Source of the DNA: Methanothrix sp.
GTDB lineage: Archaea; Halobacteriota; Methanosarcinia; Methanotrichales; Methanotrichaceae
NCBI GenBank assembly: GCA_963682135.1
Contig: OY821645.1
Coordinates: 704,001 to 768,000 of the forward strand
Length of the DNA stretch: 64,000 nucleotides
Reading direction: 5' to 3'
Position numbers and translations under genes: made by a program. Below the pieces are notes generated by a model, which ran no database searches, was not told the origin of the DNA, and worked only from the letters and a program-made list of their open reading frames with translations. Below, in pieces: positions 1,270-29,917 of the stretch. The stretch's first letter is position 1. Each line of letters begins with the position of its first letter.

Positions 1270-3771
1270 TTATTCTCCATTCCTGGACTTGGCCCGGAGG
1301 GCTTGCAGACGCTTGGCATCATTTTCTGAATCTGGATGTCCGATCTCCCTTTCATAGTCTACGCATATCTGCATCAGTTCAGCAGCCTGCTTGAGACCTC
1401 CTGATTTCTCATATGCGAGACCCAGATTCCAGCAAGTATTTGCTTCGCCCCTTCGGTCCCCGATCTCGTGGGCAATGACAAGACGCTGATCGTAGTACTC
1501 GATGGCCTTACGGGCGTCGCCCAGGTCGGCGTAGGCATTGCCCAGGTTGCCCAGATCAGCTCCCTCGCTCCTTCGGTCCCCGATCTCACGGGCTATAGTC
1601 AGGTGCTGCTCATAATACTCGATGGCCTTACGGGCGTCGCCCAGGTCGGCGTAGGCATTGCCCAGGTTGCCCAGCGCATTTCCTTCGCCCCTTCGGTCCC
1701 CGATATCACGGGCTATGGTCAGGTGCTGCTCGTGGTACTCGATGGCCTTGTGGGCGTCGCCCAGGTTCTTGTATGCGATGCCCAGGTTGCCCAGCGCATT
1801 TCCTTCGCCCCTTCGGTCCCCGATATCACGATCAATGGCCAGCGCCTGCTCGAGGTACTCGATGGCCTTACGGGCGTCGCCCAGGTCGGCATAGGCCAGG
1901 CCCAGGTTGCCCAGATCAGCTCCCTCGCCCCTTCGGTCCCCGATCTCGCGGGCTATGGTCAGATGCTGCTCGTAGTACTCGATGGCCTTACGGGCATCGC
2001 CCAGGTCGGCGTAGGCATTGCCCAGGTTGCCCAGCGCAGCTCCTTCGCCACTTCTGTCCCCGATCTCACGGGCTATGGTCAGGTGCTGCTCGTGGTACTC
2101 GATGGCCTTGTGGGCGTCGCCCAGGTTCTTGTATGCGATGCCCAGGTTGCCCAGCGCATTTCCTTCGCCCCTTCGGTCCCCGATCTCACGGGCTATGGTC
2201 AGATGCTGCTCGTGGTACTCGATGGCCTTGTGGGCGTCGCCCAGGGCGGCGTAGGCATTGCCCAGGTTGCCCAGCGCAGCTCCTTCGCCCTGCTTCGTCC
2301 CAATTTTGCGAAAAGCTTTCAGTGATTGCTTATGATAGTCGATGGCCTTGCGAACATTTCCAATGGCAGCGCTGGCAAGGCCCAACATAGTGAGAAAAGA
2401 TGCTTCGTCATAGCTTGCACCATCAGAATGTGCTGCCTCCAGTCCACACTCCAACATGGCAATTCTCTCCCCCGAATGCCCCTGTAGATCAAGATAATCT
2501 TTGATAGCCCACACAAGAGACCGAGCCTCTGCCAGCATCCCGATCCTAATGCAGACTGACTGAACTGCCAGGATGTGATCTCTCTGAGCATCTAAGTTTT
2601 CGTATCCTGGCAATCCCAGCTTCATCTGTTCTTGGCCGAATTTATCGTAATGCTGAGCCAGTCGAGCCAGTTCTTCCTTTGATACAGACAGCCTTTCCCT
2701 GGCATAAGTATGTGCCAGAGAATGGGTTATCTGATAGCTGGATTCAGGGCGCATTAACAATCCAAAATCGACCAGCTCGCCCAGGCTGAAGTTCGCCTTC
2801 AGAGCAGATAACTGCAGAGCTATGGCTATGACCTCAGGCTCGAAGGACTTCATGGCCAGAACTCCCGCCAGGCCGAGACAGGAGAGCGCCTGATCGCTTA
2901 CGTGCTCCAGACTGTGCTCCATCAGCAGTGGAATGCTCTGATGCTGCTTTTTTCCCATGTCCAGAGCCTCAAGCGGCGTCTCCTTCAGCCAGGCCAGATA
3001 GTCGCTGGCAATCTGTCGCCGGTGAGCCAGGTAGCGGCCTGCCAAGAATATGGCCAGGGGCAAACAGCCCAGGAGATTGCAGATGCTGCGAGATGTCTTT
3101 TCATCTGCAGCCATCGAGCCGCCCCAGGCCTGCAAAAGCTCGACAGCCTTATCCTCAGGCAGAGGCAGCAGATCGCTTGGCTCCTCAGGAGCATCGCTTC
3201 GGCGCCTGGTGGTGATGAGAACTCCGCAGCTTCCTGTGACTGTTAAAACTGCCTGCAGGTCATCGCAGGCCTCGGCTCCATCCAGGACTATCAGAGCCTG
3301 GCGGCCGGCCAGGGCTCTCTTTGCTGCTTCGTAAGGGCTTTGCCGCGGGTCTTCTCCATAAGCTCGGGCGATTTCTTCCAGAGCCGAAGCAGCCTGAGGC
3401 TTGTGATAGAAGGTATGAAAGACTATTCCATCTGGGAAGCGTTCCAGCGGGTTGCTTACGGGCGCAAGCTGCCAGATAGCTTCGGCAGCCAGAGCGGTCT
3501 TGCCCATACCTCCAGGGCCGCAGATGGTGACTGCGTGGCCAGCCTGAAGGTCCCGGTGGAGCGAAGCTAGCTCGGCCTCTCTTCCTGTGAAATGAGGGAC
3601 TCGCTGCGGCCTTTGGAAGGGCAGGCGAAGTTTTAGAGCTTCATTGTAGATGAAATCGCCCTGGATCTGGAACTGGCCGGAGAAGAGCGGGCCAGAGACG
3701 TCTCCTGCTACGTTGGTTTGTGGACCGTTGGTCGTCTGGCCACGTTGGTTGATTGCAGGCTTGTAGTTCAT
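1270..3771 (-). CDS. NLR-like STAND NTPase (NB-ARC) with TPR array; N-terminal amyloid-like motif A
   Basis: FTGRE, Walker A GPGGMGKT, Walker B LIVLDGAE, LITTRR, CLPLAI; seven 40-aa TPR repeats; GGAGG RBS before the ATG. Confidence 0.9.
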   Translation of the reverse strand: MNYKPAINQRGQTTNGPQTNVAGDVSGPLFSGQFQIQGDFIYNEALKLRLPFQRPQRVPHFTGREAELASLHRDLQAGHAVTICGPGGMGKTALAAEAIWQLAPVSNPLERFPDGIVFHTFYHKPQAASALEEIARAYGEDPRQSPYEAAKRALAGRQALIVLDGAEACDDLQAVLTVTGSCGVLITTRRRSDAPEEPSDLLPLPEDKAVELLQAWGGSMAADEKTSRSICNLLGCLPLAIFLAGRYLAHRRQIASDYLAWLKETPLEALDMGKKQHQSIPLLMEHSLEHVSDQALSCLGLAGVLAMKSFEPEVIAIALQLSALKANFSLGELVDFGLLMRPESSYQITHSLAHTYARERLSVSKEELARLAQHYDKFGQEQMKLGLPGYENLDAQRDHILAVQSVCIRIGMLAEARSLVWAIKDYLDLQGHSGERIAMLECGLEAAHSDGASYDEASFLTMLGLASAAIGNVRKAIDYHKQSLKAFRKIGTKQGEGAALGNLGNAYAALGDAHKAIEYHEQHLTIAREIGDRRGEGNALGNLGIAYKNLGDAHKAIEYHEQHLTIAREIGDRSGEGAALGNLGNAYADLGDARKAIEYYEQHLTIAREIGDRRGEGADLGNLGLAYADLGDARKAIEYLEQALAIDRDIGDRRGEGNALGNLGIAYKNLGDAHKAIEYHEQHLTIARDIGDRRGEGNALGNLGNAYADLGDARKAIEYYEQHLTIAREIGDRRSEGADLGNLGNAYADLGDARKAIEYYDQRLVIAHEIGDRRGEANTCWNLGLAYEKSGGLKQAAELMQICVDYEREIGHPDSENDAKRLQALRAKSRNGE
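1450..2289 (-). repeat. Intragenic tandem array, 7 x 120 bp (40-aa TPR units)
   Basis: Near-identical DNA recurs every 120 nt (gatggcctt..gggcgtcgcccagg); unit GEGxxLGNLGxAYxxLGDAxKAIEYxEQxLxIxREIGDRR. Confidence 0.95.
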
Positions 3772-3777
3772 GATGGG

Positions 3778-6300
3778 CTATCTCCTCCATTCGGCCAGTT
3801 TTTGCTCAACCCTGGCTGCAAAGGGACTTTCGATTTGCCTGTAAATTTCGAGGGCAATTTCTGCTTTCTTGATAGCTTCGGGGTGCTTGCCGAGTCCGTA
3901 GAGGGCCAGACTGGAATTGTACAGCGCATTTCCTTCGCCCCTTCTGTCCCCGATCTCACGATCGATGGCTAGCGCCTGCTCGTAGTACTCGATGGCCTTA
4001 CGGGCGTCGCCCAGGGCGGCGTAGGCCAGGCCCAGGTTGCCCAGCGCAGCTCCTTCATTCCTTTTATCCCCGATTTCCTTGGCAATGGCCAGCGCCCGAT
4101 CGTAGTACTCGATGGCCTTACGGGCGTCGCCCAGGTCGGCGTAGGCATTGCCCAGGTTGCTCAGCGCATTTCCTTCGCCCCTTCTGTCCCCGATATCACG
4201 ATCAATGGCCAGCGCCTGCTCGTAGTACTCGATGGCCTGGCAGGCGTCGCCCAGGGCGGCGTAGGCCAGGCCCAGGTTGCCCAGCCAAGCACCTTCATTC
4301 CTTTTATCCCCGATTTCCTTGGCAATGGCCAGCGCCTGCTCGTAGTATTCGATGGCCTTACGGGCGTCGCCCAGGTCGGCGTGTGCCAGGCCCAGGTTGC
4401 CCAGCGCATTTCCTTCGCCCCTTCTGTCCCCGATCTCTCGGGCTATGGTCAGGTGCTGCTCGTAGTACTCGATAGCCTTACGGGCGTCGCCCAGGTCAGC
4501 GTGTGCCAGGCCCAGGTTGCCCAGCGCATTTCCTTCGCCCCTTCTGTCCCCGATCTCTCGGGCTATGACAAGACGCTGCTCGTAGTACTCGATGGCCTTA
4601 CGGGCGTCGCCCAGGGCGGCGTAGGCCAGGCCCAGGTTGCCCAGCGCATTTCCTTCGCCCCTTCTGTCCCCGATCTCACGATCAATGGCCAGCGCCTGCT
4701 CGTGGTACTCGATGGCCTTACGGGCGTCGCCCAGGGCGGCGTAGGCCAGGCCCAGGTTGCCCAGCGCATTTCCTTCGCCCCTTCTGTCCCCGATCTCACG
4801 ATCAATGGCCAGCGCCTGCTCGTAGTACTCGATGGCCTTACGGGCGTCGCCCAAAACGTAGTGGGCACTGCCCAGGTTACCCAGCGCAGCTCCTTCCACG
4901 CCCCTATTCCTCAGCTTTCTAGCAGCTTTCAAGGCTTCTTCAAGCCAGGAAATCCTCTGCGTCGGATGGAGGCGCAAATCTATCACATAAACTCCTGCAC
5001 CAGGGTAGTTCATGCAAAGATTCGCTGCCTGGGAATTTACTTCCAGGCTCTTACAGGACCAGGCATGACCGACGTTGATATTCGCTTCTTCTCTGTCAAA
5101 GAGCGCAAGACCCTTTTGGATTCCTTCGCTTCCCTGCAGGTAGTGGTCATCGGCTGCAGCTAGCAGATCTTTGTAGTAAGAGGAATGCCTTGCAGCAATG
5201 ATCTCCCTCGATTCGTCCCGCTGACGGGCTGAGGCAAAGAGGCGAGAGAGGTCGTGCAGCCTGTAGCGCCCATAATCCCGATCTTGAGACCTGTAATCTA
5301 CGAGACTCCACCGCACCAGCTCACTCAAATTCCTGTGCTTATCATCCAGGCAGATCTGCTCCTCAGCCTGGGCATCGAAGTCCGCCGGAAAGACTGACAG
5401 ATCGAGAAAAGTCTTCTGCACAGCAGCAGCAAGCCTTTGAAAGCTTAGGCCTAAGCTGGCGTCAACGCTCATCTCCACGCCCTGCTCGCCGATCATCTCA
5501 AGCCTGGTGCGCTCGTCCTTCAGCTCCTGAGCATATTGCTTCGGGCCGATGTCCTCGGAATTGGCCAGATAGCTTCCGGCAGCTCTCAAGGCCAGCGGCA
5601 GAAAGCCGCAGAGGCTGGCAATTTCAAGCCAGGCAGGGTCATCTCTGGGTGACTTATCTTGCTTTGCAGGGCAGCAGACATTGAGCAGCAGCTCCAGAGC
5701 TTCACCTGGCTTCATGACGTCCAGGTCCTTTTTGAAGAGGCCGGGTATTTTGATGGTCCTGCGGGAGGTGATGAGAAGAGCGCAGCTCTTGGGAGGAATC
5801 AGCTTGATGACCTGCTTGTCATCGGACGCATTATCCAGAAGGAGCAGGACGCGCTTGCCATTAAGCACTTCAAGATATCTGTCTTTGACTTCTGAATCGC
5901 TTTCTGGAATCTTTTCGTTGCGATGATAAGAATGGATGACATAGGCCATTGCCTCCATGGGAGAGAGGGGATTGGTCGTGCCCATCATGTCCACCATGAT
6001 CTGGCCGTCTGGGTAGCGATCTTTGAGTGATTCGGCGAGCTTGAGAGCAAGAGCCGTCTTGCCAACGCCCCCTATGCCACGCAGGCCGATGATGTTCTTG
6101 CCGGCTGAATACTCCGCTAAAAGCTCATTCAGCTCTTCATTGCGGCCTGTGAAATCTGAAGGCGGTTCCGGGATGAAAGGAAGCCGGGAGAGATCATTAG
6201 GTTTTGGGATATTAATATTATAATAATTTCTATCTCCGAATTGCTGCTCTACATTCCCAGTGGGATTTACAACCGGCCCTTTAGCATCCCTGAAATCCAA
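3778..6300 (-). CDS. NLR-like STAND NTPase (NB-ARC) with TPR array; N-terminal amyloid-like motif B
   Basis: TTG start with AGGAGG RBS; FTGRNEEL, GIGGVGKT, LLLLDNA, LLITSRR, GFLPLAL, MHD-like RLHDL; eight TPR repeats. Confidence 0.9.
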   Translation of the reverse strand: MDFRDAKGPVVNPTGNVEQQFGDRNYYNINIPKPNDLSRLPFIPEPPSDFTGRNEELNELLAEYSAGKNIIGLRGIGGVGKTALALKLAESLKDRYPDGQIMVDMMGTTNPLSPMEAMAYVIHSYHRNEKIPESDSEVKDRYLEVLNGKRVLLLLDNASDDKQVIKLIPPKSCALLITSRRTIKIPGLFKKDLDVMKPGEALELLLNVCCPAKQDKSPRDDPAWLEIASLCGFLPLALRAAGSYLANSEDIGPKQYAQELKDERTRLEMIGEQGVEMSVDASLGLSFQRLAAAVQKTFLDLSVFPADFDAQAEEQICLDDKHRNLSELVRWSLVDYRSQDRDYGRYRLHDLSRLFASARQRDESREIIAARHSSYYKDLLAAADDHYLQGSEGIQKGLALFDREEANINVGHAWSCKSLEVNSQAANLCMNYPGAGVYVIDLRLHPTQRISWLEEALKAARKLRNRGVEGAALGNLGSAHYVLGDARKAIEYYEQALAIDREIGDRRGEGNALGNLGLAYAALGDARKAIEYHEQALAIDREIGDRRGEGNALGNLGLAYAALGDARKAIEYYEQRLVIAREIGDRRGEGNALGNLGLAHADLGDARKAIEYYEQHLTIAREIGDRRGEGNALGNLGLAHADLGDARKAIEYYEQALAIAKEIGDKRNEGAWLGNLGLAYAALGDACQAIEYYEQALAIDRDIGDRRGEGNALSNLGNAYADLGDARKAIEYYDRALAIAKEIGDKRNEGAALGNLGLAYAALGDARKAIEYYEQALAIDREIGDRRGEGNALYNSSLALYGLGKHPEAIKKAEIALEIYRQIESPFAARVEQKLAEWRR
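3940..4899 (-). repeat. Intragenic tandem array, 8 x 120 bp (40-aa TPR units)
   Basis: Same unit family as 1450-2289, with 120-nt periodicity visible in the DNA. Confidence 0.95.
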
Positions 6301-6343: not shown

Positions 6344-7477
6344 CTACTCATCCTCTGGAGCTATGAGCTCGATCTTTTCGGGATCTACTCCCTCCTTGAC
6401 CAGCAATTCTGGTTTGCTTTCTTCCGGTATCCCCTCAAGGAGCAGAACGACGATCCCTTGATCAAAAGCCTGCTTAATCGATAGCCCAAATCCTATGGCC
6501 CGGTAGAAAGAGCCAGCAAAGGCAATTGCAGCCTCATCTCCGATTGCATCGTTCATGCCAATGGCGCAATCGATCACCTGGGTAATGGCTTCAGCCTGAA
6601 TTTTAGAGTAGCACGCATTTAGGATTACTACTCGAATGTTAGCTTTCAGCGTCTGGAATAGCGCCTTTATCGCTCTGGGATTTACTGGCTTTTGCTCTCC
6701 CCGGCTATCCACTAAAATTATCTCGCCAGATTGGCTGCCGTGCCCACTGAAATGCACAATCTGCGGCTTATGCTGGTTGAGCAGTTGCAGCAAATCATCG
6801 GGACGAACTGCCCAGGCGGATATGAGGTCTATTGAATCACGGTACTCTGCAGCTCTGATCTTTTCTGTGATCTCTCGGATCTCTCTATCAAGCTCCAAAG
6901 GTGTGGTGCCTTTGGGATTTGAAGCCAGGAAGAGAGCCTTAATCTTTTTAGAATTTTTATTATCATCGGACGATTCTTTTGCCCTGGAATGATCGATATT
7001 CACATCTCCGAAATGCTGGCTGACTGAGCCGCTTGGCCTAATAACCGCGCCTTTCGAGCCTCGAAAGTCATTTGCGTCTCCATTGAATTGACCGGAAAAT
7101 ACAGCTCCCTGTACGCCTCCGGCAATATTGGTCTGCGGACCGTGAACTGTCTGGCCCCGCTGGTCGAATACCGATCCTGCGCCCTCTTTCTTGATTGTCT
7201 CGACAAGCCTCTGAATCTCCTCTGCAAAATCAGCATCATCTTCCATCTTTTCGGCTATGGCCGCCTGTAGGGCAGCCTGCCTTGCCTTTGAATCCGGCTT
7301 CTCCTGGGCGCCAGCCAAAGCCTGCTGGGCGCTGGCGTCGCCTTTGAACCTGTCTGCAACCGACCCGGAAAGATCACCTACCAGACCCCCCAGCTTCTCT
7401 CCAACGGTTTTTGAAAATACTTCTGCTCCCTTAGCCACAAAGGGAGCCGCAAGGGCCGCTATTCCGAGTAGATCCAT
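6344..7477 (-). CDS. Effector: BELL-like helical N-terminal domain + two amyloid-like motifs + CHAT (caspase-like) protease domain
   Basis: aa1-100 helical (AAPFVAKGAE...LQAAIAEKMEDDADFAEEIQRLV); aa104-161 G/Q/N/S-rich; CHAT motifs LFLASNP, IVHFSGHG (catalytic His), VVILNACYS (catalytic Cys), FYRAIG. Confidence 0.85.
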   Translation of the reverse strand: MDLLGIAALAAPFVAKGAEVFSKTVGEKLGGLVGDLSGSVADRFKGDASAQQALAGAQEKPDSKARQAALQAAIAEKMEDDADFAEEIQRLVETIKKEGAGSVFDQRGQTVHGPQTNIAGGVQGAVFSGQFNGDANDFRGSKGAVIRPSGSVSQHFGDVNIDHSRAKESSDDNKNSKKIKALFLASNPKGTTPLELDREIREITEKIRAAEYRDSIDLISAWAVRPDDLLQLLNQHKPQIVHFSGHGSQSGEIILVDSRGEQKPVNPRAIKALFQTLKANIRVVILNACYSKIQAEAITQVIDCAIGMNDAIGDEAAIAFAGSFYRAIGFGLSIKQAFDQGIVVLLLEGIPEESKPELLVKEGVDPEKIELIAPEDE

Positions 7478-8144: not shown

Positions 8145-8756
8145 TCAAGCGATGCCCCTCATCAATCTCTCTTCTTCTTCCAGCTTATGAAATGCTCTCT
8201 TTCTTCTGCGATAAGTTACAAAGGTGATTATGGCTGCAATTGCGATGGATCCGAAGAGGGCTGCCAGGGAGATCATGATTGATGCGAACAGGCCCTCAAC
8301 CATCCCTTTTCCTATAGCCAGTACCGCTTGGGGCCCGTCTCTGCCTGAATACGAGGCATTAACCTGATAAATGCCGGCCCGCTCGATGCTAAAGGCCATT
8401 ATGGATCGACCGCTGCGCCCTCCCAGGCTGTAGGAAAAGTCGCTTTTTGCCGGATAGGTGGCTAAGTCAATGCCTGTGGCTTTTTCCCGCACATGTACCT
8501 CCAGACCTGATATTGGCTCACCCGAACTGTAGAATCTGCCGCTAAAGTAACTGTTGTTCTCGTAGAAGACGACGTATTCGCCCGGCTCTGAGAAAAACAG
8601 GTCCGCTCCTCCCGGAGCTAGCATCTGCATCAGGCCGTTTTGCGTATCAGAAATGCCGGAGTAGATAGACCCGGCAAATGCCGCAAATCCTATGATTATT
8701 ATCAGCACTGCCAGGCCATAATACCAAATTCCCGGCTGAATATTATCGCTATTCAT
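8145..8756 (-). CDS. Hypothetical membrane protein (N- and C-terminal TM helices)
   Basis: Hydrophobic segments YYGLAVLIIIIGFAAFAG and LFASIMISLAALFGSIAIAAIITF; ATG at 8756 overlaps the photolyase stop. Confidence 0.7.
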   Translation of the reverse strand: MNSDNIQPGIWYYGLAVLIIIIGFAAFAGSIYSGISDTQNGLMQMLAPGGADLFFSEPGEYVVFYENNSYFSGRFYSSGEPISGLEVHVREKATGIDLATYPAKSDFSYSLGGRSGRSIMAFSIERAGIYQVNASYSGRDGPQAVLAIGKGMVEGLFASIMISLAALFGSIAIAAIITFVTYRRRKRAFHKLEEEERLMRGIA

Positions 8757-10113
8757 CGTAACCCCATTTGCCAATGTAAGCCTGCACATCGAATTTTCTT
8801 TTTGCGCCATTATAGTTCATGTAGCGCACCTTGCCAAATATCGCCCTTTCCTTCCAGGCTCGATCATGAAGGCCGCCCAGGCTCCAGGCAATTCCCGTAT
8901 ATCCGTTGGGATCTCTTCCGTCCAGTTCATACCGATCATTCAGATAGATCGCTAATGCCTGAGCTGCAGCGGGCGACGCCGTCCACTCCAGAATCTTTTT
9001 GGCCCAGTACATTCTCATGTAGCCGTGCATCTTTCCAGTTCGAAGCAGCTCCCGTTGGGCAGCATTCCACAGTTCGTCATGGGTGCCTGCCTTCTCCAGC
9101 TCCGAAAGAGTGTAAAGGTATTCTCTTCTATCTTTTTCATGCTCGCGAAGGCTCTTAATTGCCCAGGATGCAAAGCCCTGCGTATCATCATAGTGCTGAT
9201 TGTAGTAGCAGTAATTCTCGGATAATTCTCTTCGCACTATCAGCTCCTCTAAAAATGCGCCTGCATCTTTGCGGCTTCTCAAAACTTGCAGAGCGATTCG
9301 TTGAGCCGATATCTGGCCGAAGTGCAGATAAGGAGAAAGGCCGGACTGTCCATCAATATTGGGATCATTCCTATCCCTTTCGTAACCGTCCAGCTTGTGC
9401 TCCAGGAAATGGTCCATTTGCCTCATGGCCGCCGCCTCTCCCGGCACTATCCATTTTGCCTCCGGCATCGCGTCTGCTCTTAAGGATCTTTCCGCTTCCC
9501 CCCAGTCATTCTCAATAGCGCCGGTTCCCTGAGGATAATTGCTCTCTCTCACAACGAGATCCTTCTTGGGCAAAGTCGGGAACTCATCAAGAAATTCAAA
9601 GAGAAGTCGATTCACTTTGGGACGGAAACTGTAGGCTGCCCATTCCTGTTTTTGGGATGCCTGCCAGCAAGGAATGATGTTGTGGGCATCAACCTCGTAA
9701 AAGGATATTTCGTTCACATCTGCAAGTACGCTTTTCCACTGCCTGCTTTGCCGCAGAGGGGAAAAATCACATACTAAAGCACCTGCATCCATTTCTTCAA
9801 TCAGACGAGGTATCTCTCTGCCGGGATCGCCCCGGAGAAGGAAGAAAGGAATGTTTTGAGCCTTCAGGTTATTTTCCATCTCCTTTAACCCTCGTAGCAT
9901 AAAGAGATACTGCCTTTCGGTCGCACCCAAGAACAGGGAAGCCTGGCAAAAGGCTACCGCCGGATAGGTATCGTACTTTTTGGCAAGCTCTCCGGCATAG
10001 AGCAGAGCCCAGTTGTCGCTGACGCGCTGGTCGCGACTCATCCAATAGATCACAGGGCCTTTCGTTTGGCTTTTTTTCGTCAAGGCTCTTACCCTTTTGG
10101 GATTGATGAGCAT
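8749..10113 (-). CDS. phr: Class II CPD DNA photolyase
   Basis: YWMSRDQRVSDNWAL, SGLSPYLHFGQIS, MHGYMRMYWAKKILEW, LDGRDPNGY. Confidence 0.93.
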   Translation of the reverse strand: MLINPKRVRALTKKSQTKGPVIYWMSRDQRVSDNWALLYAGELAKKYDTYPAVAFCQASLFLGATERQYLFMLRGLKEMENNLKAQNIPFFLLRGDPGREIPRLIEEMDAGALVCDFSPLRQSRQWKSVLADVNEISFYEVDAHNIIPCWQASQKQEWAAYSFRPKVNRLLFEFLDEFPTLPKKDLVVRESNYPQGTGAIENDWGEAERSLRADAMPEAKWIVPGEAAAMRQMDHFLEHKLDGYERDRNDPNIDGQSGLSPYLHFGQISAQRIALQVLRSRKDAGAFLEELIVRRELSENYCYYNQHYDDTQGFASWAIKSLREHEKDRREYLYTLSELEKAGTHDELWNAAQRELLRTGKMHGYMRMYWAKKILEWTASPAAAQALAIYLNDRYELDGRDPNGYTGIAWSLGGLHDRAWKERAIFGKVRYMNYNGAKRKFDVQAYIGKWGYDE

Positions 10114-21608: not shown

Positions 21609-22485
21609 CTATATATTTTTTTCTTTAAAGTTAATCGCATGTAGAGTCCCGAATCTTTGGCATTTATATACCCCTCGATTCTTTTTTAATCTACCTTGCT
21701 GCATTAAAATCTCTCTCCATTCGAGACAGAATAAATTCAACTTACAGCCGTTTGGCAATCTAGACCAAAAAGCATCTTCTGGCGTCTGAAGATAGTGCTT
21801 TTCTTCAAGACTCTCATGATACCTTATTGAGTTATACCAATTCAAAAATTTGTCAAAATTTTCAAACAATTTCCTGCTCTTCTCGTAAGTATGAAACCAT
21901 TTTTCGATTTTGCCATTGGTCTGAGGATGCTTAACTCGCGCCAGGATATGTTTTATCCTATTCTCTGCCAGGAATCGTCCAAAATCACATTCTGACACCC
22001 CGTTCTTGTCTGACCTGTTGGCAAAGAATTGCGAGCCATGATCCGTAATCATCTCTTTGATTTCCCGAATCTCTCCAAAATCATCAAGCGCCATTCTTAC
22101 AATCGCTATGCTGTTATCAGTAGTCGCAGCAGAAAATTCCCCTTCTGCAAGAATGAATCGAGAGCTGTCATCAAGAACCACGCAGACCTCTTTGCCATTG
22201 AATCGACTGGTATGCCAATCAAGATGAACTGCGATGAGACTATGTTTTCGTTCATATCTCATCCAAGGCTTCCTGCGTTTCTTTTTTGTTATCCCCATTG
22301 GTTAAACCGTTTTCAAGAAGGACTTGATGGATCGCGTTATGCGGTATATGTCTGCCATATCTTTGCTCGATTATCTTCTCGATAAGCCTTGCTCCGGAAT
22401 TTTGCTCTTTGTGGATTTCCAGTATTAGACTAACGTCTGACTCGCCAAGACTCTTCTTTGGGCGCCCGAACTTTTTTGGTGCCAA
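21609..22485 (-). pseudogene. IS481-type DDE transposase, frameshifted and 5'-truncated
   Basis: Two frames join near 22290 (GRPKK...IPHNAIHQVL / KKRRKPWMRYERKHSL..VHLDW); LDDSSR, TDHGSQF, HPQTNGKIEKW. Confidence 0.85.
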
Positions 22486-24891: not shown

Positions 24892-27800
24892 TCATTCCTT
24901 GTTTTTTGCAGGGGATTTTTCAGCTAGTTTATCAGTGAGACTCTTAATCAACTCATCAAGATCTTTCTCATACTCTTCATTGAGATCCAATTCCTTCGCC
25001 AACCGGCAACATTTCGAGGCCTTTCTGGCAATGAGCGGATCCCTCTTTGATTGCAGATCCCATAAATCAATTTTGCCCTTATATGCCATAGCCAGGTGAA
25101 AATATGCAGAAGGTCCGGCTTGCTCGGACACGGATTTCTCAAGCCAGTATATCGCTTCATCTATGAGGCCAAGGTCATAGCAAATCCAGCCCATGCAATC
25201 TTCGTAATCGGCATTTAAGCGATGCATCCTTGATTGATAATCCTCTTTATATTCTCTGCTATTTGTCCCTTTATTGCAGTCTTCCAGTGAGCCAATATCT
25301 TTTTTGGCAAGACGAGCATTATCAAGGGCAATACCAGGGTTACCATTGCGTTCTATGCATGAGATTGATTTACCTAAATAGGCTCGAATTATTATCTCAT
25401 TTGGATAAATGAAATCTTCATATTTTTCTCCAAGAATATTATCTGGCGCATCTTCTTTAAATTTTACTCCTTCTGATATTATCTGGTCGAACAGTCTATC
25501 CGATTCATCGAATGACTTAGCTTTGAGGTAAGCATAAGCAAGTCTTAGGGCGATTATGAGCGTGTCTCTATCGGAATGGATCTTTGCAGATCTAACATTG
25601 TAGAGAATTCTGAAATGAGGTATTGCTTTCTTGTAGTTGCCCATCTCATAATGCACTTTGCCAAGCCAGTAACGAGCCACACCTCTCTTTGTTATCAGAG
25701 ATTTATCATAGATCCTCAGGGCTTGATTGAGTTTATCACTGGCGGCAGTCAGTATTTTCTTACGATGTTCTTTATCATCGCATTTTTTTGCCTGTTTAAC
25801 ATATGATTGTGCCATCTCAACCAGGATTTCAGGCTTGTCAGGCTTCCAAGATTGTGCATAATCCAGCTCTTGCATGCCAAAATCAAACTCCTCCAGGTCG
25901 CAGAATATGCTGCCAAGCTCACGACGCTCGTCATAGCCCAACGGGTTAGACATCCTTCCTTTTTGTGCTCCTTTTAGGGCATTCGACATTTCTTTTCTTT
26001 GCTCACTCTGTGATCGGGAAAGCTTCGTCCAGAGGCTTCTGCTTTTTATATCCTGAGGACGTTCATCCTCTAATAGATTAATTGCTTCCTGGAAGGCCGT
26101 TTCCGCTTCTCTTGGCTTTTTCATATTAAGATAAAGCTGACCTGATTCAATCAAGAGCTGAGAATATTCCTGGACATACATGGAGTACTTTCTTGGAAAT
26201 TCAGTTTTAATTATTGAACTATTATTTTTATTATCCTTAATAAAAATCTCATTGATCTCTTCAAGCGTATTTATAGATTCTTTATCAAATAAATCCACCT
26301 GCGCTTTGATTTTATCATTATTCTTTTTATTTTCAATAGCATCAACAGCTCTGAGATAGACATCTGCGCAATTTTTTAGGGCATTTTCTAATTCATCGAT
26401 CGCTTCTTTATTGTGGGATAGTTTTTGCGCTTCGCTAATAATATCGCTAATTTTTCTTTGTAATTTATTGTACATTTTTTTATTTTTATAATCTCTAGCT
26501 TCAATTGGATTTGACTCACCATTTATAAGTTTGTATGTATCTAATTTGCATTTTAACACATTCTTGGCATTGGCGAGACAATTCTCAGACTCTTGCTTTT
26601 TTTCTTGATTTTTTTGATATATTTCATTAAATAGAGCATCCAATACGTTTATTTCCGGGCCAATGAAGATAGAGTCGTCTTTGAGATGCTTATTTAAACT
26701 TTCTATTTTTTTATCGAAATCACTATTATCTTGAATCTTATTATTTTCTAGAAAATTAATTGAATTAGTGAGACATCTATGGGCATCGTCTGGTCTTTTC
26801 GATTTCAAATAGTGCTCATGTCTATCAAACATCTCTCTAGCCTTTCTGAAAGAATCGTCCCAATAATTATAATATAAATAAGATAAATAACTATACGAAT
26901 AAAGAACCTGTGCTCTTTCCCATCCCTTTTCTGCCCGATGATAATCATTCTTCAATTTATCAATAATTATTTTGATGTGGTTTTCGTAAATGTTCTTAGT
27001 CTCATTGCTATCGTTATCTATTGAATCTAGGTCATCTAATAATTTAATTAATGTCGCAAAAACGGCGGCGCTTTTCCAATTCCCCGATACACCTTCCTCT
27101 TTTCCGCCGCATTCAAGCATCATTTTAAGACATTTGATAATCGAATCTCCTTTCTTTGCATCATCCTTTAATCTTGCCAAAAAGGAAGCATTTTCCAGAC
27201 GTCGACATTGCTCGGCTTCCTCCATCGACCCATAGACTTTTGCCACCATTTCCAGGGCGGCACTGCATGCATCAGGGCCATAGACCATGATACTATCGCA
27301 TAATTGAAACGCTCTTTCTTTGCACATTAATTCATTATGGGTTACTTCTTTGTTCCACTTTTTATAAAAAATACATCCAAGACATGCCTTGAACCTGTCA
27401 TCTTCAGGAGCCATTTTTGAGCCAAATTCGTAAATTTTTCTGGCGGCTTCATCGTATTTATTGGATGAATTCTGACAATGGGCTTTGCCTAGATGAAGAT
27501 ATAAATTGGAATCATAGGGATTCACGCTGATGGCCTGTTCAAGAGATTTTCTCGCACTAAAATTTTGCATAGAATAAGATAGCTCCTCTGGAAAGGATTT
27601 TTGCTTAAGCAAATATAGATCGGCCAGATCAATTAGGCACTCGCTAAACAGCTTCCTGGCATCAGTCAAATCATCCTCCCAGAATTCTGATTTTAGCAAT
27701 GCCAACAGGGAATAATATGCCGCCTTTTTACAGCACGTGATCGGATTTATTAGATCTATCTTTTGGACGCCGGATCCTGAATTCTTCACGCTGGTCTCAA

Positions 27801-29799
27801 CTGAACAGATAGACTCTCGGTTTTTTTCATCAATCCTGGCCAGATGGCTCATGGCATCTCCCTTCAGATTATATGCTTTTGCCAGACATCGATAATCCTT
27901 CAATATGATGCCAGAGTCTTTCTCTTTAAGTTTAATTATATAATCACTCAAATCAACAACTTTCGTATACTGTTCTGTAATTGTCTTATTGCAGAGGCGG
28001 AGAAGCTTAATATCATGATGATACGAATGAGAAAGTTCCTCTTGGTCTCTTGCTCTATCATAAATATTGAGCCCAAGGGCATAATATGCCTCCCATTCGT
28101 TGGGATTTTTCTTGATGGCCCTGGAGAACGCGACCTCGGCAGAGTCGAGCTGCTGGAGTTCGGTATAGACGACCCCTAAATTATAATAGGCTTTAATGGA
28201 GTCATCCTCCTCTTCGGCAGCATTGATGAAGTGCTTTTCAGCATCCTTTAAGTAATATTGCCTTTTTTTGACAGAATGCAGACAATCACGATAAGCTCGA
28301 AGACCTTCATTGAAATTCCAAATAGCTTTCCAGGGTACTACTTTGCCAGGTTCTCCAAATGCCAGCTTTGCGAAAATCCGGTGAGAGAGCTCACTAACCA
28401 TATCGTCAATCGGTCGGGTCTTTGAGTCACTATCCAAGGAGATCTGCTCATCAACAACCCAGCTGTATGGCTCACTTCCCGTCATAGTTGCGGTCAGGTA
28501 AAAAATGTCTCCCTTTTCCTTCGTTGTGTCTTTCGTCTTATGCAATCCGATAGTTATCCTTGGTCCCTGCATCAAGCGCCCGATCATACTGGTGACTGAC
28601 CCCAGGGGGACGCTTATTGGGCCAAGCCCAATCTCCGAATTTTCACTGGTTGAGCTCTTTAGAATATCTCCGATCTCCCCTGATTTAAGGGTGGCTTCGA
28701 CGGGCCTGCCTGCACCTGATTCAGATCGAATGGCACGTTGCTCATCTACATCTTTGTATAGCTCGCTTATCCTATTGAGGTTTGTTGCCAGCAGGTCGGC
28801 CAACCCACTTGGATTGGGTTCATCTCTGTCGGCCCCCTTTCCAGCTTTATCATCTGCTTTGGTTTCTTGCGGAGGGGAATTTGTGAAATCTTCCACAACA
28901 ATTGACAATTGATGAGATGTCCTCATGACGAGGATTATTACTTCTAAAAGAAACCAAATTACTAAGATCTTCTCCCAATGAAAACTGATAGTTGTTATTA
29001 TGCTTGATACCATTGCATAAAAAAAGTTATCCCCAAAATAATTCCAATATACTATTACTCCCTTTGGCGAATCCATATTGAGCAATAATCCGTCAGATGG
29101 TCCGTCCAGCAATGATCCTTGCGCATACCTTGCACCAAGATATGTGACGTTAGATATGATTCCATTGATCTGGGATGTGCCATCGATAATCATTCTTGAG
29201 CTCGATGCAATCAGGCCATTGTAGGCTTTCTCTATCAACCAGACAATGATTGCGACATCTGCCAGCCTTATTACAGGAGCCGGACATCCTGTAATCAAGA
29301 AGCGGTAGGTTTTTCCCAGCCATCTGGATATCCACAATAATAGAAATCGAGCAGGGAAAAAAATAGTATGTTTCGAAAGAATTAATAATGTTGAGAGGAG
29401 TAATAGTATTAATGAAATCAAGATAATAGAAAAGCCCAACATTGCCCATAGAGAAGATTGTGGTAAGCCTTTAGCTTCTCCAAAGAGTAGGTATAATATG
29501 CTTTCTCCATAGGCCTGGTCAATTATGCGAAGAATAAGAAGCGAAATTAGAATGACGCCAATGCCAAGAAATAATATTATCGCGTAAGCCCACCTTTTCT
29601 TACACAATGGTTTAAAATGGAAAATAAGAGCAGGAACAAAAAAGAAGAAAAAAAACGTAGTAATCGCATATGCCCAAAGATCAGACATCTCTGAGAAAGC
29701 TGTCGCTTTCACTAGAATGCTGATGAATGCACTGGCAATAAACAACGAACTCGCAAAAATAAAGAAAACCGTTGAAGCCCCATTCCTTACCTTCAGCAT
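24892..29799 (-). CDS. Large membrane-anchored TPR protein (~1635 aa)
   Basis: Several N-terminal TM helices; TPR-type segments (AYYNLGVVY, AYYALG, RYWLGKVHYEMGNYKKAI, AYFHLAMAY); start at ATG 29799 or TTG 29808. Confidence 0.8.
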   Translation of the reverse strand: MLKVRNGASTVFFIFASSLFIASAFISILVKATAFSEMSDLWAYAITTFFFFFFVPALIFHFKPLCKKRWAYAIILFLGIGVILISLLILRIIDQAYGESILYLLFGEAKGLPQSSLWAMLGFSIILISLILLLLSTLLILSKHTIFFPARFLLLWISRWLGKTYRFLITGCPAPVIRLADVAIIVWLIEKAYNGLIASSSRMIIDGTSQINGIISNVTYLGARYAQGSLLDGPSDGLLLNMDSPKGVIVYWNYFGDNFFYAMVSSIITTISFHWEKILVIWFLLEVIILVMRTSHQLSIVVEDFTNSPPQETKADDKAGKGADRDEPNPSGLADLLATNLNRISELYKDVDEQRAIRSESGAGRPVEATLKSGEIGDILKSSTSENSEIGLGPISVPLGSVTSMIGRLMQGPRITIGLHKTKDTTKEKGDIFYLTATMTGSEPYSWVVDEQISLDSDSKTRPIDDMVSELSHRIFAKLAFGEPGKVVPWKAIWNFNEGLRAYRDCLHSVKKRQYYLKDAEKHFINAAEEEDDSIKAYYNLGVVYTELQQLDSAEVAFSRAIKKNPNEWEAYYALGLNIYDRARDQEELSHSYHHDIKLLRLCNKTITEQYTKVVDLSDYIIKLKEKDSGIILKDYRCLAKAYNLKGDAMSHLARIDEKNRESICSVETSVKNSGSGVQKIDLINPITCCKKAAYYSLLALLKSEFWEDDLTDARKLFSECLIDLADLYLLKQKSFPEELSYSMQNFSARKSLEQAISVNPYDSNLYLHLGKAHCQNSSNKYDEAARKIYEFGSKMAPEDDRFKACLGCIFYKKWNKEVTHNELMCKERAFQLCDSIMVYGPDACSAALEMVAKVYGSMEEAEQCRRLENASFLARLKDDAKKGDSIIKCLKMMLECGGKEEGVSGNWKSAAVFATLIKLLDDLDSIDNDSNETKNIYENHIKIIIDKLKNDYHRAEKGWERAQVLYSYSYLSYLYYNYWDDSFRKAREMFDRHEHYLKSKRPDDAHRCLTNSINFLENNKIQDNSDFDKKIESLNKHLKDDSIFIGPEINVLDALFNEIYQKNQEKKQESENCLANAKNVLKCKLDTYKLINGESNPIEARDYKNKKMYNKLQRKISDIISEAQKLSHNKEAIDELENALKNCADVYLRAVDAIENKKNNDKIKAQVDLFDKESINTLEEINEIFIKDNKNNSSIIKTEFPRKYSMYVQEYSQLLIESGQLYLNMKKPREAETAFQEAINLLEDERPQDIKSRSLWTKLSRSQSEQRKEMSNALKGAQKGRMSNPLGYDERRELGSIFCDLEEFDFGMQELDYAQSWKPDKPEILVEMAQSYVKQAKKCDDKEHRKKILTAASDKLNQALRIYDKSLITKRGVARYWLGKVHYEMGNYKKAIPHFRILYNVRSAKIHSDRDTLIIALRLAYAYLKAKSFDESDRLFDQIISEGVKFKEDAPDNILGEKYEDFIYPNEIIIRAYLGKSISCIERNGNPGIALDNARLAKKDIGSLEDCNKGTNSREYKEDYQSRMHRLNADYEDCMGWICYDLGLIDEAIYWLEKSVSEQAGPSAYFHLAMAYKGKIDLWDLQSKRDPLIARKASKCCRLAKELDLNEEYEKDLDELIKSLTDKLAEKSPAKNKE

Positions 29800-29917
29800 A
29801 ATTGGCAACCAGACACTTTCCTATTACTACTGTTTCGTTGTTTTAGTATATTTAATTTGCCGAAGACCTCTCGAATGACAATGAGTGCATCAAATCAAAA
29901 TAAATATAAAAAACTAA

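Follow-up and report, generated by a model that had tools for sequence, protein, structure and literature searches.

How could one short polymerising segment control two effector domains at once? The question is raised by a gene in a stretch of 64,000 nucleotides (nt) from Methanothrix sp. (assembly GCA_963682135.1, contig OY821645.1, positions 704,001 to 768,000 of the forward strand), which we call the window and whose positions are used throughout. The gene occupies exactly 6344..7477 on the minus strand, starts with ATG and encodes a putative effector of 377 amino acids (aa; P0001), in which a Bell-like domain, two motifs that we name A and B, and a CHAT protease follow one another. An earlier note on this DNA, made from its letters, had proposed such a three-part layout (a helical domain of about 100 aa, then motifs, then CHAT), and the open reading frame (ORF) with its translation, the Pfam match to CHAT and the AlphaFold2 model bear it out. 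The amyloid-controlled effectors described so far, as they appear in the available parts of the literature on which our comparisons with published systems draw, bear the motif at the end of a single effector domain, whereas in the window effector two domains flank the motif segment. The field has yet to explain by what means a cross-beta polymer could activate an enzyme of the CHAT, TIR, PNP_UDP or hydrolase type. With a predicted membrane-targeting domain and a protease on either side of the presumed polymerising segment, both outputs would be readable from one construct.

Two genes of the NOD-like receptor (NLR) type follow the effector on the minus strand, and the three genes are collinear. 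NLR1 (P0002; 3778..6300) starts 43 nt after the effector stop with a TTG codon, 8 nt after the sequence GGAGGAG, and encodes 840 aa comprising motif B, an NB-ARC domain (Pfam, aa 55-276, E 3.6e-15) and a tetratricopeptide repeat (TPR) array (TPR_12, E 2.2e-98). NLR2 (P0122; 1270..3771) starts 6 nt after the NLR1 stop and encodes 833 aa comprising motif A, an NB-ARC domain (aa 78-257, E 2.7e-8) and again a TPR array (TPR_12, E 4.1e-56). The two proteins are 45% identical overall, with the identity mostly confined to the TPR arrays. Tandem DNA repeats of 120 nt encode these arrays, in 8.1 copies in NLR1 (3922..4896) and 7.1 copies in NLR2 (1438..2290), with 85% matches in both cases; high internal repeat similarity has been described for diversifying NLR sensors (Dyrka et al. 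2020, 10.1101/2020.01.06.895854).

The segment of the effector between its two folded parts (aa 101-176; 6950..7177, minus strand) holds both motifs and the linker to CHAT. It is rich in G, S, N and Q, together with V and D, and is predicted to be disordered, with a predicted local distance difference test (pLDDT) score of 31-38. In BLASTP comparisons, motif A (effector aa 105-131; 7085..7165, minus strand) recurs at the N-terminus of NLR2 (aa 8-34; 3670..3750, minus strand) with 19 of 27 residues identical (E 3e-12), and the remaining high-scoring segment pairs between the NLR2 N-terminus and the effector have E>0.4 and lie elsewhere than motif A. Motif B (effector aa 137-160; 6998..7069, minus strand) recurs at the N-terminus of NLR1 (aa 2-25; 6226..6297, minus strand) with 14 of 24 residues identical (E 5e-9), this being the single segment pair between the NLR1 N-terminus and the effector. 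As far as sequence tells, the middle segment is made of two different motifs in tandem, each matched to its own receptor gene. The motifs that the earlier note had placed in the middle of the effector are present there, but as two distinct motifs with different NLR partners rather than as repeats of one motif. A HET-s-like arrangement of two pseudo-repeats of one motif was considered and rejected, with a second NLR gene found and each NLR N-terminus matching one stretch. In the HET-S/NWD2 system of Podospora, too, an NLR with one motif templates a two-unit effector segment beside a membrane-targeting helical domain; however, the two units of HET-s repeat a single motif as pseudo-repeats and answer to a single NLR, whereas A and B are distinct, and HET-S is without an enzyme domain whereas the window effector has CHAT. 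Having two distinct motifs, each tied to its own receptor gene, the locus would lend itself naturally to testing specificity and signal integration. The spacer between A and B (aa 132-136, in the region of 7085..7069) has 5 residues in the window protein and 11 in most homologues, which carry an extra insert of the K-G-P-L-S-M type, so the A-B spacing is not fixed.

We think it somewhat probable that these three genes form one amyloid-signalling cassette under NLR control, in which a Methanothrix-type archaeon would couple two sensors to a single effector with two heads. The N-terminal domain, both motifs and CHAT are all retained in about 20 metagenomic homologues that match over the full length (376-403 aa, 59-92% identity). 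A second genomic locus (L001, Methanosaeta sp. UBA80) carries the extended effector gene between ion-antiporter genes, a neighbourhood different from that of the window. There the effector is followed by a B-type NLR, then by an NLR with A and the start of B, and then by an A-type NLR, the order being as in the window. Between the window effector and its L001 orthologue, the ratio of non-synonymous to synonymous substitution rates (dN/dS) is 0.14 for the Bell-like domain, 0.06 for motif A, 0.43 for motif B with the linker and 0.06 for CHAT, rough values from a single pair with dS of 0.8-1.6, near saturation. In this comparison the Bell-like domain, motif A and CHAT all look constrained, and motif B with the linker is the fastest-evolving segment of the effector. 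Judged from these sequences, the extended two-headed form is real and recurrent.

The same evidence bears on the explanation that the effector is an incidental or decaying gene fusion whose parts have no joint function. In its favour, the A-B spacer of the window protein is shorter by 6 residues than that of most homologues. Against this stand the full-length homologues with all parts kept, the presence of the arrangement in a second species and in a different neighbourhood, the dN/dS values of 0.06-0.14 for the Bell-like domain, motif A and CHAT, and an intact catalytic dyad. We regard a fusion of this kind as very improbable.

The N-terminal Bell-like domain (aa 1-100; 7178..7477, minus strand) was assigned by its model, hydropathy and homology. 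An AlphaFold2 model from a 31-row family alignment predicts six helices across residues 3-100 with block pLDDT of 81-95, and the same helical domain appears in the full-length effector model from a 56-row alignment with block pLDDT of 71-89. The effector thereby has the predicted all-alpha N-terminal domain of about 100 aa that marks the Bell proteins, whose genes are paired with NLR genes through bacterial amyloid signalling sequences (BASS). Another mark of these proteins, a hydrophobic first helix whose second or third residue is acidic, is also found. The chain begins M-D-L-L-G-I-A-A-L-A-A-P-F-V-A, with Asp as residue 2, and the 15 residues of highest hydropathy in the entire effector begin at residue 1. 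In alignment A1, 20 of 31 sequences start with M-[DE]-P-[LIMFV]-[ST], a start that appears to resemble the 'MEPIS' N-terminal motif named for the Bab, Bell and Hell domains (10.1101/2024.11.07.622273). The sharing of a motif with the start of a neighbouring, collinear gene of the NLR type is found twice. The motif is not at the C-terminal end of a protein of about 120-140 aa, as it is in the Bell/BASS systems, and instead both lie at aa 105-160 of 377. The Bell assignment was made because of this family architecture and these N-terminal sequence features, not by fold matching.

Bell/BASS-NLR gene pairs were described by Dyrka et al. 2020 (10.1101/2020.01.06.895854), and the Bell domain occurs in Methanosarcinales; a Bell protein of Methanothrix soehngenii and two Methanosarcinales pairs outside BASS1-10 are named there. 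The window resembles them in its helical domain of about 100 aa with a hydrophobic N-terminus and an acidic start, followed by a short G/N/Q-rich motif, and in a second copy of the motif with which a neighbouring, collinear NB-ARC/TPR gene begins, whose TPR repeats are highly alike. It differs in that its motifs are not C-terminal, with 217 residues including the protease coming after them, and in that the effector has two unlike motifs in tandem and is accompanied by two NLR genes bearing one each.

Relatives of the N-terminal part place the extended form within a larger family. A search with effector aa 1-165, restricted to shorter proteins, returned 90 relatives, most of them of 141-146 aa and covering 82% of the query. 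The stand-alone close Bell relatives stop a few residues after motif A, in agreement with the statement of the earlier note that BELL effectors usually end at the motif. A family profile run against 1.84 billion representatives recovered 952 proteins at E<=1e-3, and among the best 150 of these most have 125-150 aa and match from residue 1. An 82-member alignment (A3) shows the helical domain of about 100 aa followed by several unrelated short C-terminal motifs. A single N-terminal query against genome contigs gave no related loci, and a scan of the contigs with alignment A1 gave 31, mostly from Methanothrix or Methanotrichaceae assemblies. Five of the 31, as well as the window, have an NB-ARC gene starting with motif A next to an effector that carries motif A and the Bell marks; the tabulated layout of L029 is alike. 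This pairing of an A-bearing Bell effector with an A-bearing NB-ARC gene is, in predicted architecture, the published Bell/BASS layout. At L007 the Bell-A unit is fused directly to NB-ARC-TPR. Other relatives have the Bell-like domain in an internal position (P0302, P0307, P0323), combine it with a different, longer CHAT (P0230) or with DUF4062 (P0246), or, in the case of P0213, have the order Bell-A-B-PNP_UDP_1, with a PNP_UDP phosphorylase in the position of CHAT. P0230, P0246 and P0213 follow the plan of the window effector with another second head, and in P0213 an independent second effector takes up the C-terminal slot.

The two motifs also keep company with other domains. Motif A, mostly together with motif B, follows a Peptidase_C14 domain at seven loci (L018:8161-9534, L019:8194-9432, L022:157-1659, L023:8152-9408, L025, L030 and L031) from Methanothrix and from Anaerolineales, Chloroflexia and Caldilineaceae (Chloroflexota-type) assemblies, and in some of these proteins zinc ribbons come after the motifs. 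The same motif plug appears to have been put to use in another caspase-fold family as well, and in more than one domain of life. Motifs A and B, split between two receptors in the window, stand in tandem at the N-terminus of NB-ARC proteins at L017:8791-10023 (an Ignavibacteriota assembly) and in P0207. Motif A lies between a Mrr-type restriction endonuclease domain (Mrr_cat) and TCAD2 in P0334, and in front of TCAD2 alone at L027:1722-2438. Through this Mrr/TCAD2 company motif A seems linked to 'ternary' conflict systems; the available text of Kaur et al. 2020 (eLife 52696) yielded no relevant passage on HetE, amyloid, CHAT or HeLo. On a contig labelled Holophagales (L024), the N-terminal stretches of the NLRs are letter-identical to L001:12175-16756 (UBA80) in the segments compared, which suggests either a mis-binned contig or a very recent transfer.

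Such company is relevant to a second explanation, in which motifs A and B are ordinary homotypic docking peptides, acting by strand addition or an adaptor-like contact, and the effector is activated stoichiometrically on an NLR ring with no self-propagating polymer. The association of motif A or of the A+B unit with TCAD2 and Mrr_cat of other conflict systems is in keeping with docking, as is the conservation of motif A at the level of an enzyme domain (dN/dS 0.06). Neither motif is among BASS1-10 in the available text, where the archaeal pairs are likewise not assigned to them (10.1101/2020.01.06.895854). On the other hand, their length, their G/N/Q/S-rich composition, their disorder in the monomer and their placement in the effector and at the NLR N-terminus match published amyloid motifs, and the many unrelated short C-terminal motifs borne by the Bell family (alignment A3) are the Bell/BASS pattern. 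Related BASS motifs form prions and fibrils (10.1101/2020.01.06.895854; 10.1101/2024.11.07.622273). Docking without a polymer appears unlikely to us, and by analogy with these relatives we infer that motifs A and B may form amyloid, each templated by its copy on the matching NLR.

The C-terminal part of the effector (aa 178-373; 6359..6946, minus strand) is an alpha/beta cassette with pLDDT of 74-90 that is recognised as a CHAT (caspase-fold) protease by PF12770 (aa 168-340, E 2.5e-9, 37.4 bits against a curated cut-off of 24) and by the PADLOC 'chat' model (3e-17). Its top match in the PDB is 8tl0, both by sequence profile (E 1.8e-21) and by Foldseek (E 2.6e-11), and caspases 4, 7, 8, 6 and 1, MALT1 and separase come next in the fold list; the cassette is accordingly predicted to have a caspase-type fold. 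The effector sequence HFSGHG at 242-247 places His246 (codon 6740..6742, minus strand) opposite the His of HFIGHG in 8tl0, and LNACYS at 286-291 places Cys289 (codon 6611..6613, minus strand) opposite the first Cys of LNACC. In both cases the position of the aligned 8tl0 residue differs by 20 from that of the residue named as catalytic in the publication, H375 or C422 (10.1101/2023.06.23.546230). The intact His/Cys dyad proposed in the earlier note is upheld by this profile alignment as a predicted one, and both residues are kept in 117 of 119 homologues of the cassette, the exceptions being P0055, with Arg for His, and P0027, which is truncated.

The structure 8tl0 shows SAVED-CHAT, from the type III-B CRISPR system of Haliangium ochraceum, in its activated filament form (10.1101/2023.06.23.546230). 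SAVED-CHAT is an inactive monomer whose protease activity depends on polymerisation induced by cyclic triadenylate (cA3; 10.1101/2023.06.23.546230). It is the closest solved relative of the window CHAT and shares the context of the His/Cys dyad. The polymeriser differs: there it is the cA3-binding SAVED domain, and in the window it is presumably the pair of short motifs. The PADLOC SAVED_CHAT model matches the effector only over profile positions 308-454, its CHAT part, and the 8tl0 profile match is likewise confined to chain residues 288-454, so that the SAVED nucleotide-sensing domain is absent from the effector. The dedicated substrate of SAVED-CHAT, PCaspase, is encoded nearby, whereas no substrate gene is seen in the window. 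In a Pfam scan of the 52 other ORFs of the window we found neither a gasdermin nor another dedicated substrate family, as the earlier note had supposed, and in this the locus differs from protease-gasdermin operons. CHAT-BASS effectors, in which a CHAT protease and an NLR have an amyloid-type motif in common and are linked by it (10.1101/2020.01.06.895854), differ in turn from the window effector, whose motifs are N-terminal to CHAT and have the Bell-like domain on their other side. A complex prediction for two copies of CHAT (aa 172-377), run with no controls, scored 0.00 against a mark of 0.42 and says nothing either way.

A search with the CHAT part recovered 2461 proteins at E<=0.001 among 8000 candidates scored. 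To the listed matches that are not full-length, the part of about 195 aa alone is 56-76% identical, mostly 65-75%. Its partners at either end include TIR, FGE-sulfatase, TPR, HTH, FHA, PspA-like, NB-ARC (P0081) and NACHT (P0098) domains; in P0081 and P0098, at about 70% identity, it is fused directly to the NTPase as the N-terminal and sole non-sensor domain. The named sources of the cassette proteins include Methanosarcinales, Pyrinomonadaceae and Blastocatellia. Between the archaeon and proteins named as Acidobacteria (hits P0029-P0121) the cassette is unusually conserved, mostly at 65-75% identity. From this distribution the cassette looks like a mobile module under strong constraint, whose substrate is perhaps universal. 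In one permuted protein of 343 aa (P0031) the CHAT cassette comes first, followed by a Bell-like domain starting M-D-S-A-T-I-G-A-I-A and by a C-terminal G/N/Q-rich motif; here the hydrophobic helix lies inside the chain, and one may ask whether cleavage sets it free.

Such cleavage is the core of a third explanation, a self-processing switch, in which CHAT cuts its own or a neighbouring linker after polymerisation and so frees Bell-motif units or removes an inhibitory C-terminal domain, the protease then serving maturation rather than killing in its own right. The stretch that links the motifs to CHAT (aa 161-177) is disordered, with many K, D, S and N residues, and channel-type CHAT active sites take unstructured peptides (10.1101/2023.06.23.546230); in P0031 the internal helix would turn N-terminal only after a cut. 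However, the sibling P0213 has the non-protease PNP_UDP_1 in the same slot behind Bell-A-B, which also weakens the alternative, offered in the earlier note, of an N-terminal domain set free by the protease. In proteins lacking a Bell domain, with partners such as TIR, FGE-sulfatase, HTH, NB-ARC and NACHT, the CHAT cassette retains 65-75% identity, and a Bell-specific substrate is therefore unlikely. Furthermore, Bell-like domains are internal in P0302, P0307 and P0323 too, and the abundant stand-alone Bell-A proteins need no protease. We consider self-processing improbable as the principal role of the protease.

A fourth explanation assigns the killing to the Bell-like domain alone, with CHAT as a regulator of the pathway that would reset or amplify the response through cleavage of the NLRs, of the polymer or of an inhibitor. 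SAVED-CHAT is indeed an initiator that cleaves a second protease and not a direct killer (10.1101/2023.06.23.546230), and the Pfam scan of the window shows no local substrate. Yet nothing at the locus looks like a second protease or an inhibitor, and the cassettes of P0081 and P0098, as sole non-sensor domains, fit an effector role. This makes a purely regulatory CHAT quite unlikely.

We return to the reading of the locus as a two-sensor cassette with a double-headed effector. What the analysis establishes is the domain composition, the pairing of each motif with one NLR, the adjacency of the genes, the conservation of all parts and the recurrence; we infer the membrane targeting, the protease activation, the substrate and the biological role of the effector. 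Each NB-ARC/TPR protein would sense its own ligand through its array of hyper-similar TPRs. Upon oligomerisation of a sensor, its N-terminal motif (A on NLR2, B on NLR1) would form a cross-beta nucleus, and the effector, templated by this nucleus at the matching motif of its disordered segment, would polymerise. Polymerisation would free the hydrophobic first helix of the Bell-like domain for membrane attack and, at the same time, align CHAT domains at high local concentration and switch them on, as filament formation does in SAVED-CHAT. The outcome would be cell death or arrest, in the form of abortive infection or regulated cell death.

Activation of CHAT by polymerisation is suggested here because SAVED-CHAT, its nearest solved relative, behaves in this way, and because the same cassette is the N-terminal domain of NB-ARC and NACHT proteins; these fusions are the 'all-in-one' counterpart expected for an effector activated by oligomerisation. 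The mechanism also draws on the Bab/Agp (BASS11) antiphage system of E. coli, in which a Bell-type domain with an amyloid motif causes abortive infection experimentally (10.1101/2024.11.07.622273), so that by analogy the Bell-like domain may be able to execute it. Bab/Agp resembles the window in its small Bell-type domain with a motif, C-terminal in Bab, and in activation by a partner with the same motif. It differs in having a TPR-GreA/B-C-PIN sensor and not an NLR, a single-headed effector and a bacterial host.

Several results weigh against this reading, beyond the absence of the published archaeal pairs from BASS1-10 and the roughness of the dN/dS values. In a Foldseek search of the model of the N-terminal domain against the PDB, the best matches are designed or generic helical bundles (E 0.15), with no HeLo, MLKL or Bab match in a database that may not include the Bab structure; a PDB profile search with the domain family gives only a marginal, unrelated helical protein (1wj7, E 0.009), and a Pfam hmmscan of aa 1-100 gives no family. 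The BELL-like label of the earlier note therefore stands on family architecture and N-terminal sequence features, and the fold match to HeLo, MLKL or Bab that would have gone with it was not found by Foldseek. Fold topologies differ widely within the Bab/Bell-type group (10.1101/2024.11.07.622273). A label of 'HetE-N' (PF20701) for the domain was dropped: the family scores below threshold on three of six relatives and gives no match on the window domain. PF20701.5 is listed on many relatives of the domain in precomputed tables, and PF20701 is on 26% of the nearest Atlas cluster; the nearest clusters consist of cyanobacterial or actinobacterial proteins of 88-116 aa, and a literature search on 'HetE-N' and 'PF20701' returned nothing relevant.

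The preference of the motifs for their own receptors is a further point of this kind. For motif A, cognate effector-NLR pairs have a mean identity of 16.7 of 28 residues (n=7) against 13.7 of 28 in non-cognate pairs (n=35), a weak difference, and the own NLR is the best or tied-best match in only three of six effectors. For motif B, a count by eye at two loci shows no bias towards the cognate partner. Among genomic loci with context, the full arrangement is carried by only two, the window and L001.

In the parts of the literature available to us, published BASS motifs come last in the chain, after Bell, TIR, CHAT, hydrolase or cyclase domains, and double or triple units are pseudo-repeats of one motif (Dyrka et al. 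2020; 10.1101/2024.11.07.622273; 2021 Prion review; 2022 PLoS Comput Biol; 2025 Bioinformatics). Within this amyloid-signalling literature we did not find a Bell-motif-CHAT polypeptide or tandem hetero-motifs served by two NLR genes, with the reservation that Table S2 (archaeal pairs) or Fig. S5 (CHAT) of Dyrka et al. may already hold this type of locus. If the proposed mechanism is true, the locus would be an archaeal case of the control of a caspase-fold protease by induced polymerisation, and would bear on the age of inflammasome-like logic. The broadest reading of the data, which we put forward tentatively and with considerable doubt, is a minimal archaeal 'inflammasome plus MLKL' in one polypeptide. 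Two NLRs would act on one effector as a logical OR, polymerisation would both deploy a pore-former and activate a protease, and the A+B unit would be a portable 'amyloid plug', used across archaea and several bacterial phyla on C14 caspases, on Bell-PNP_UDP and at the NB-ARC N-terminus, with motif A by itself accompanying Mrr and TCAD2.

Two further observations concern other parts of the window. An integrase-core (rve) ORF (21609..22298, minus strand) lies near a TPR-containing ORF of 1638 aa (24892..29808, minus strand), in a stretch with a G+C content of 0.36-0.41 against about 0.50 elsewhere, which is possibly an acquired island. An ORF for a predicted membrane protein of 221 aa (8145..8810, minus strand), with no Pfam match, overlaps the 3' end of a photolyase ORF (8749..10113, minus strand) by about 60 nt when counted from the first start codon, and the start of one of the two ORFs is probably mis-set.

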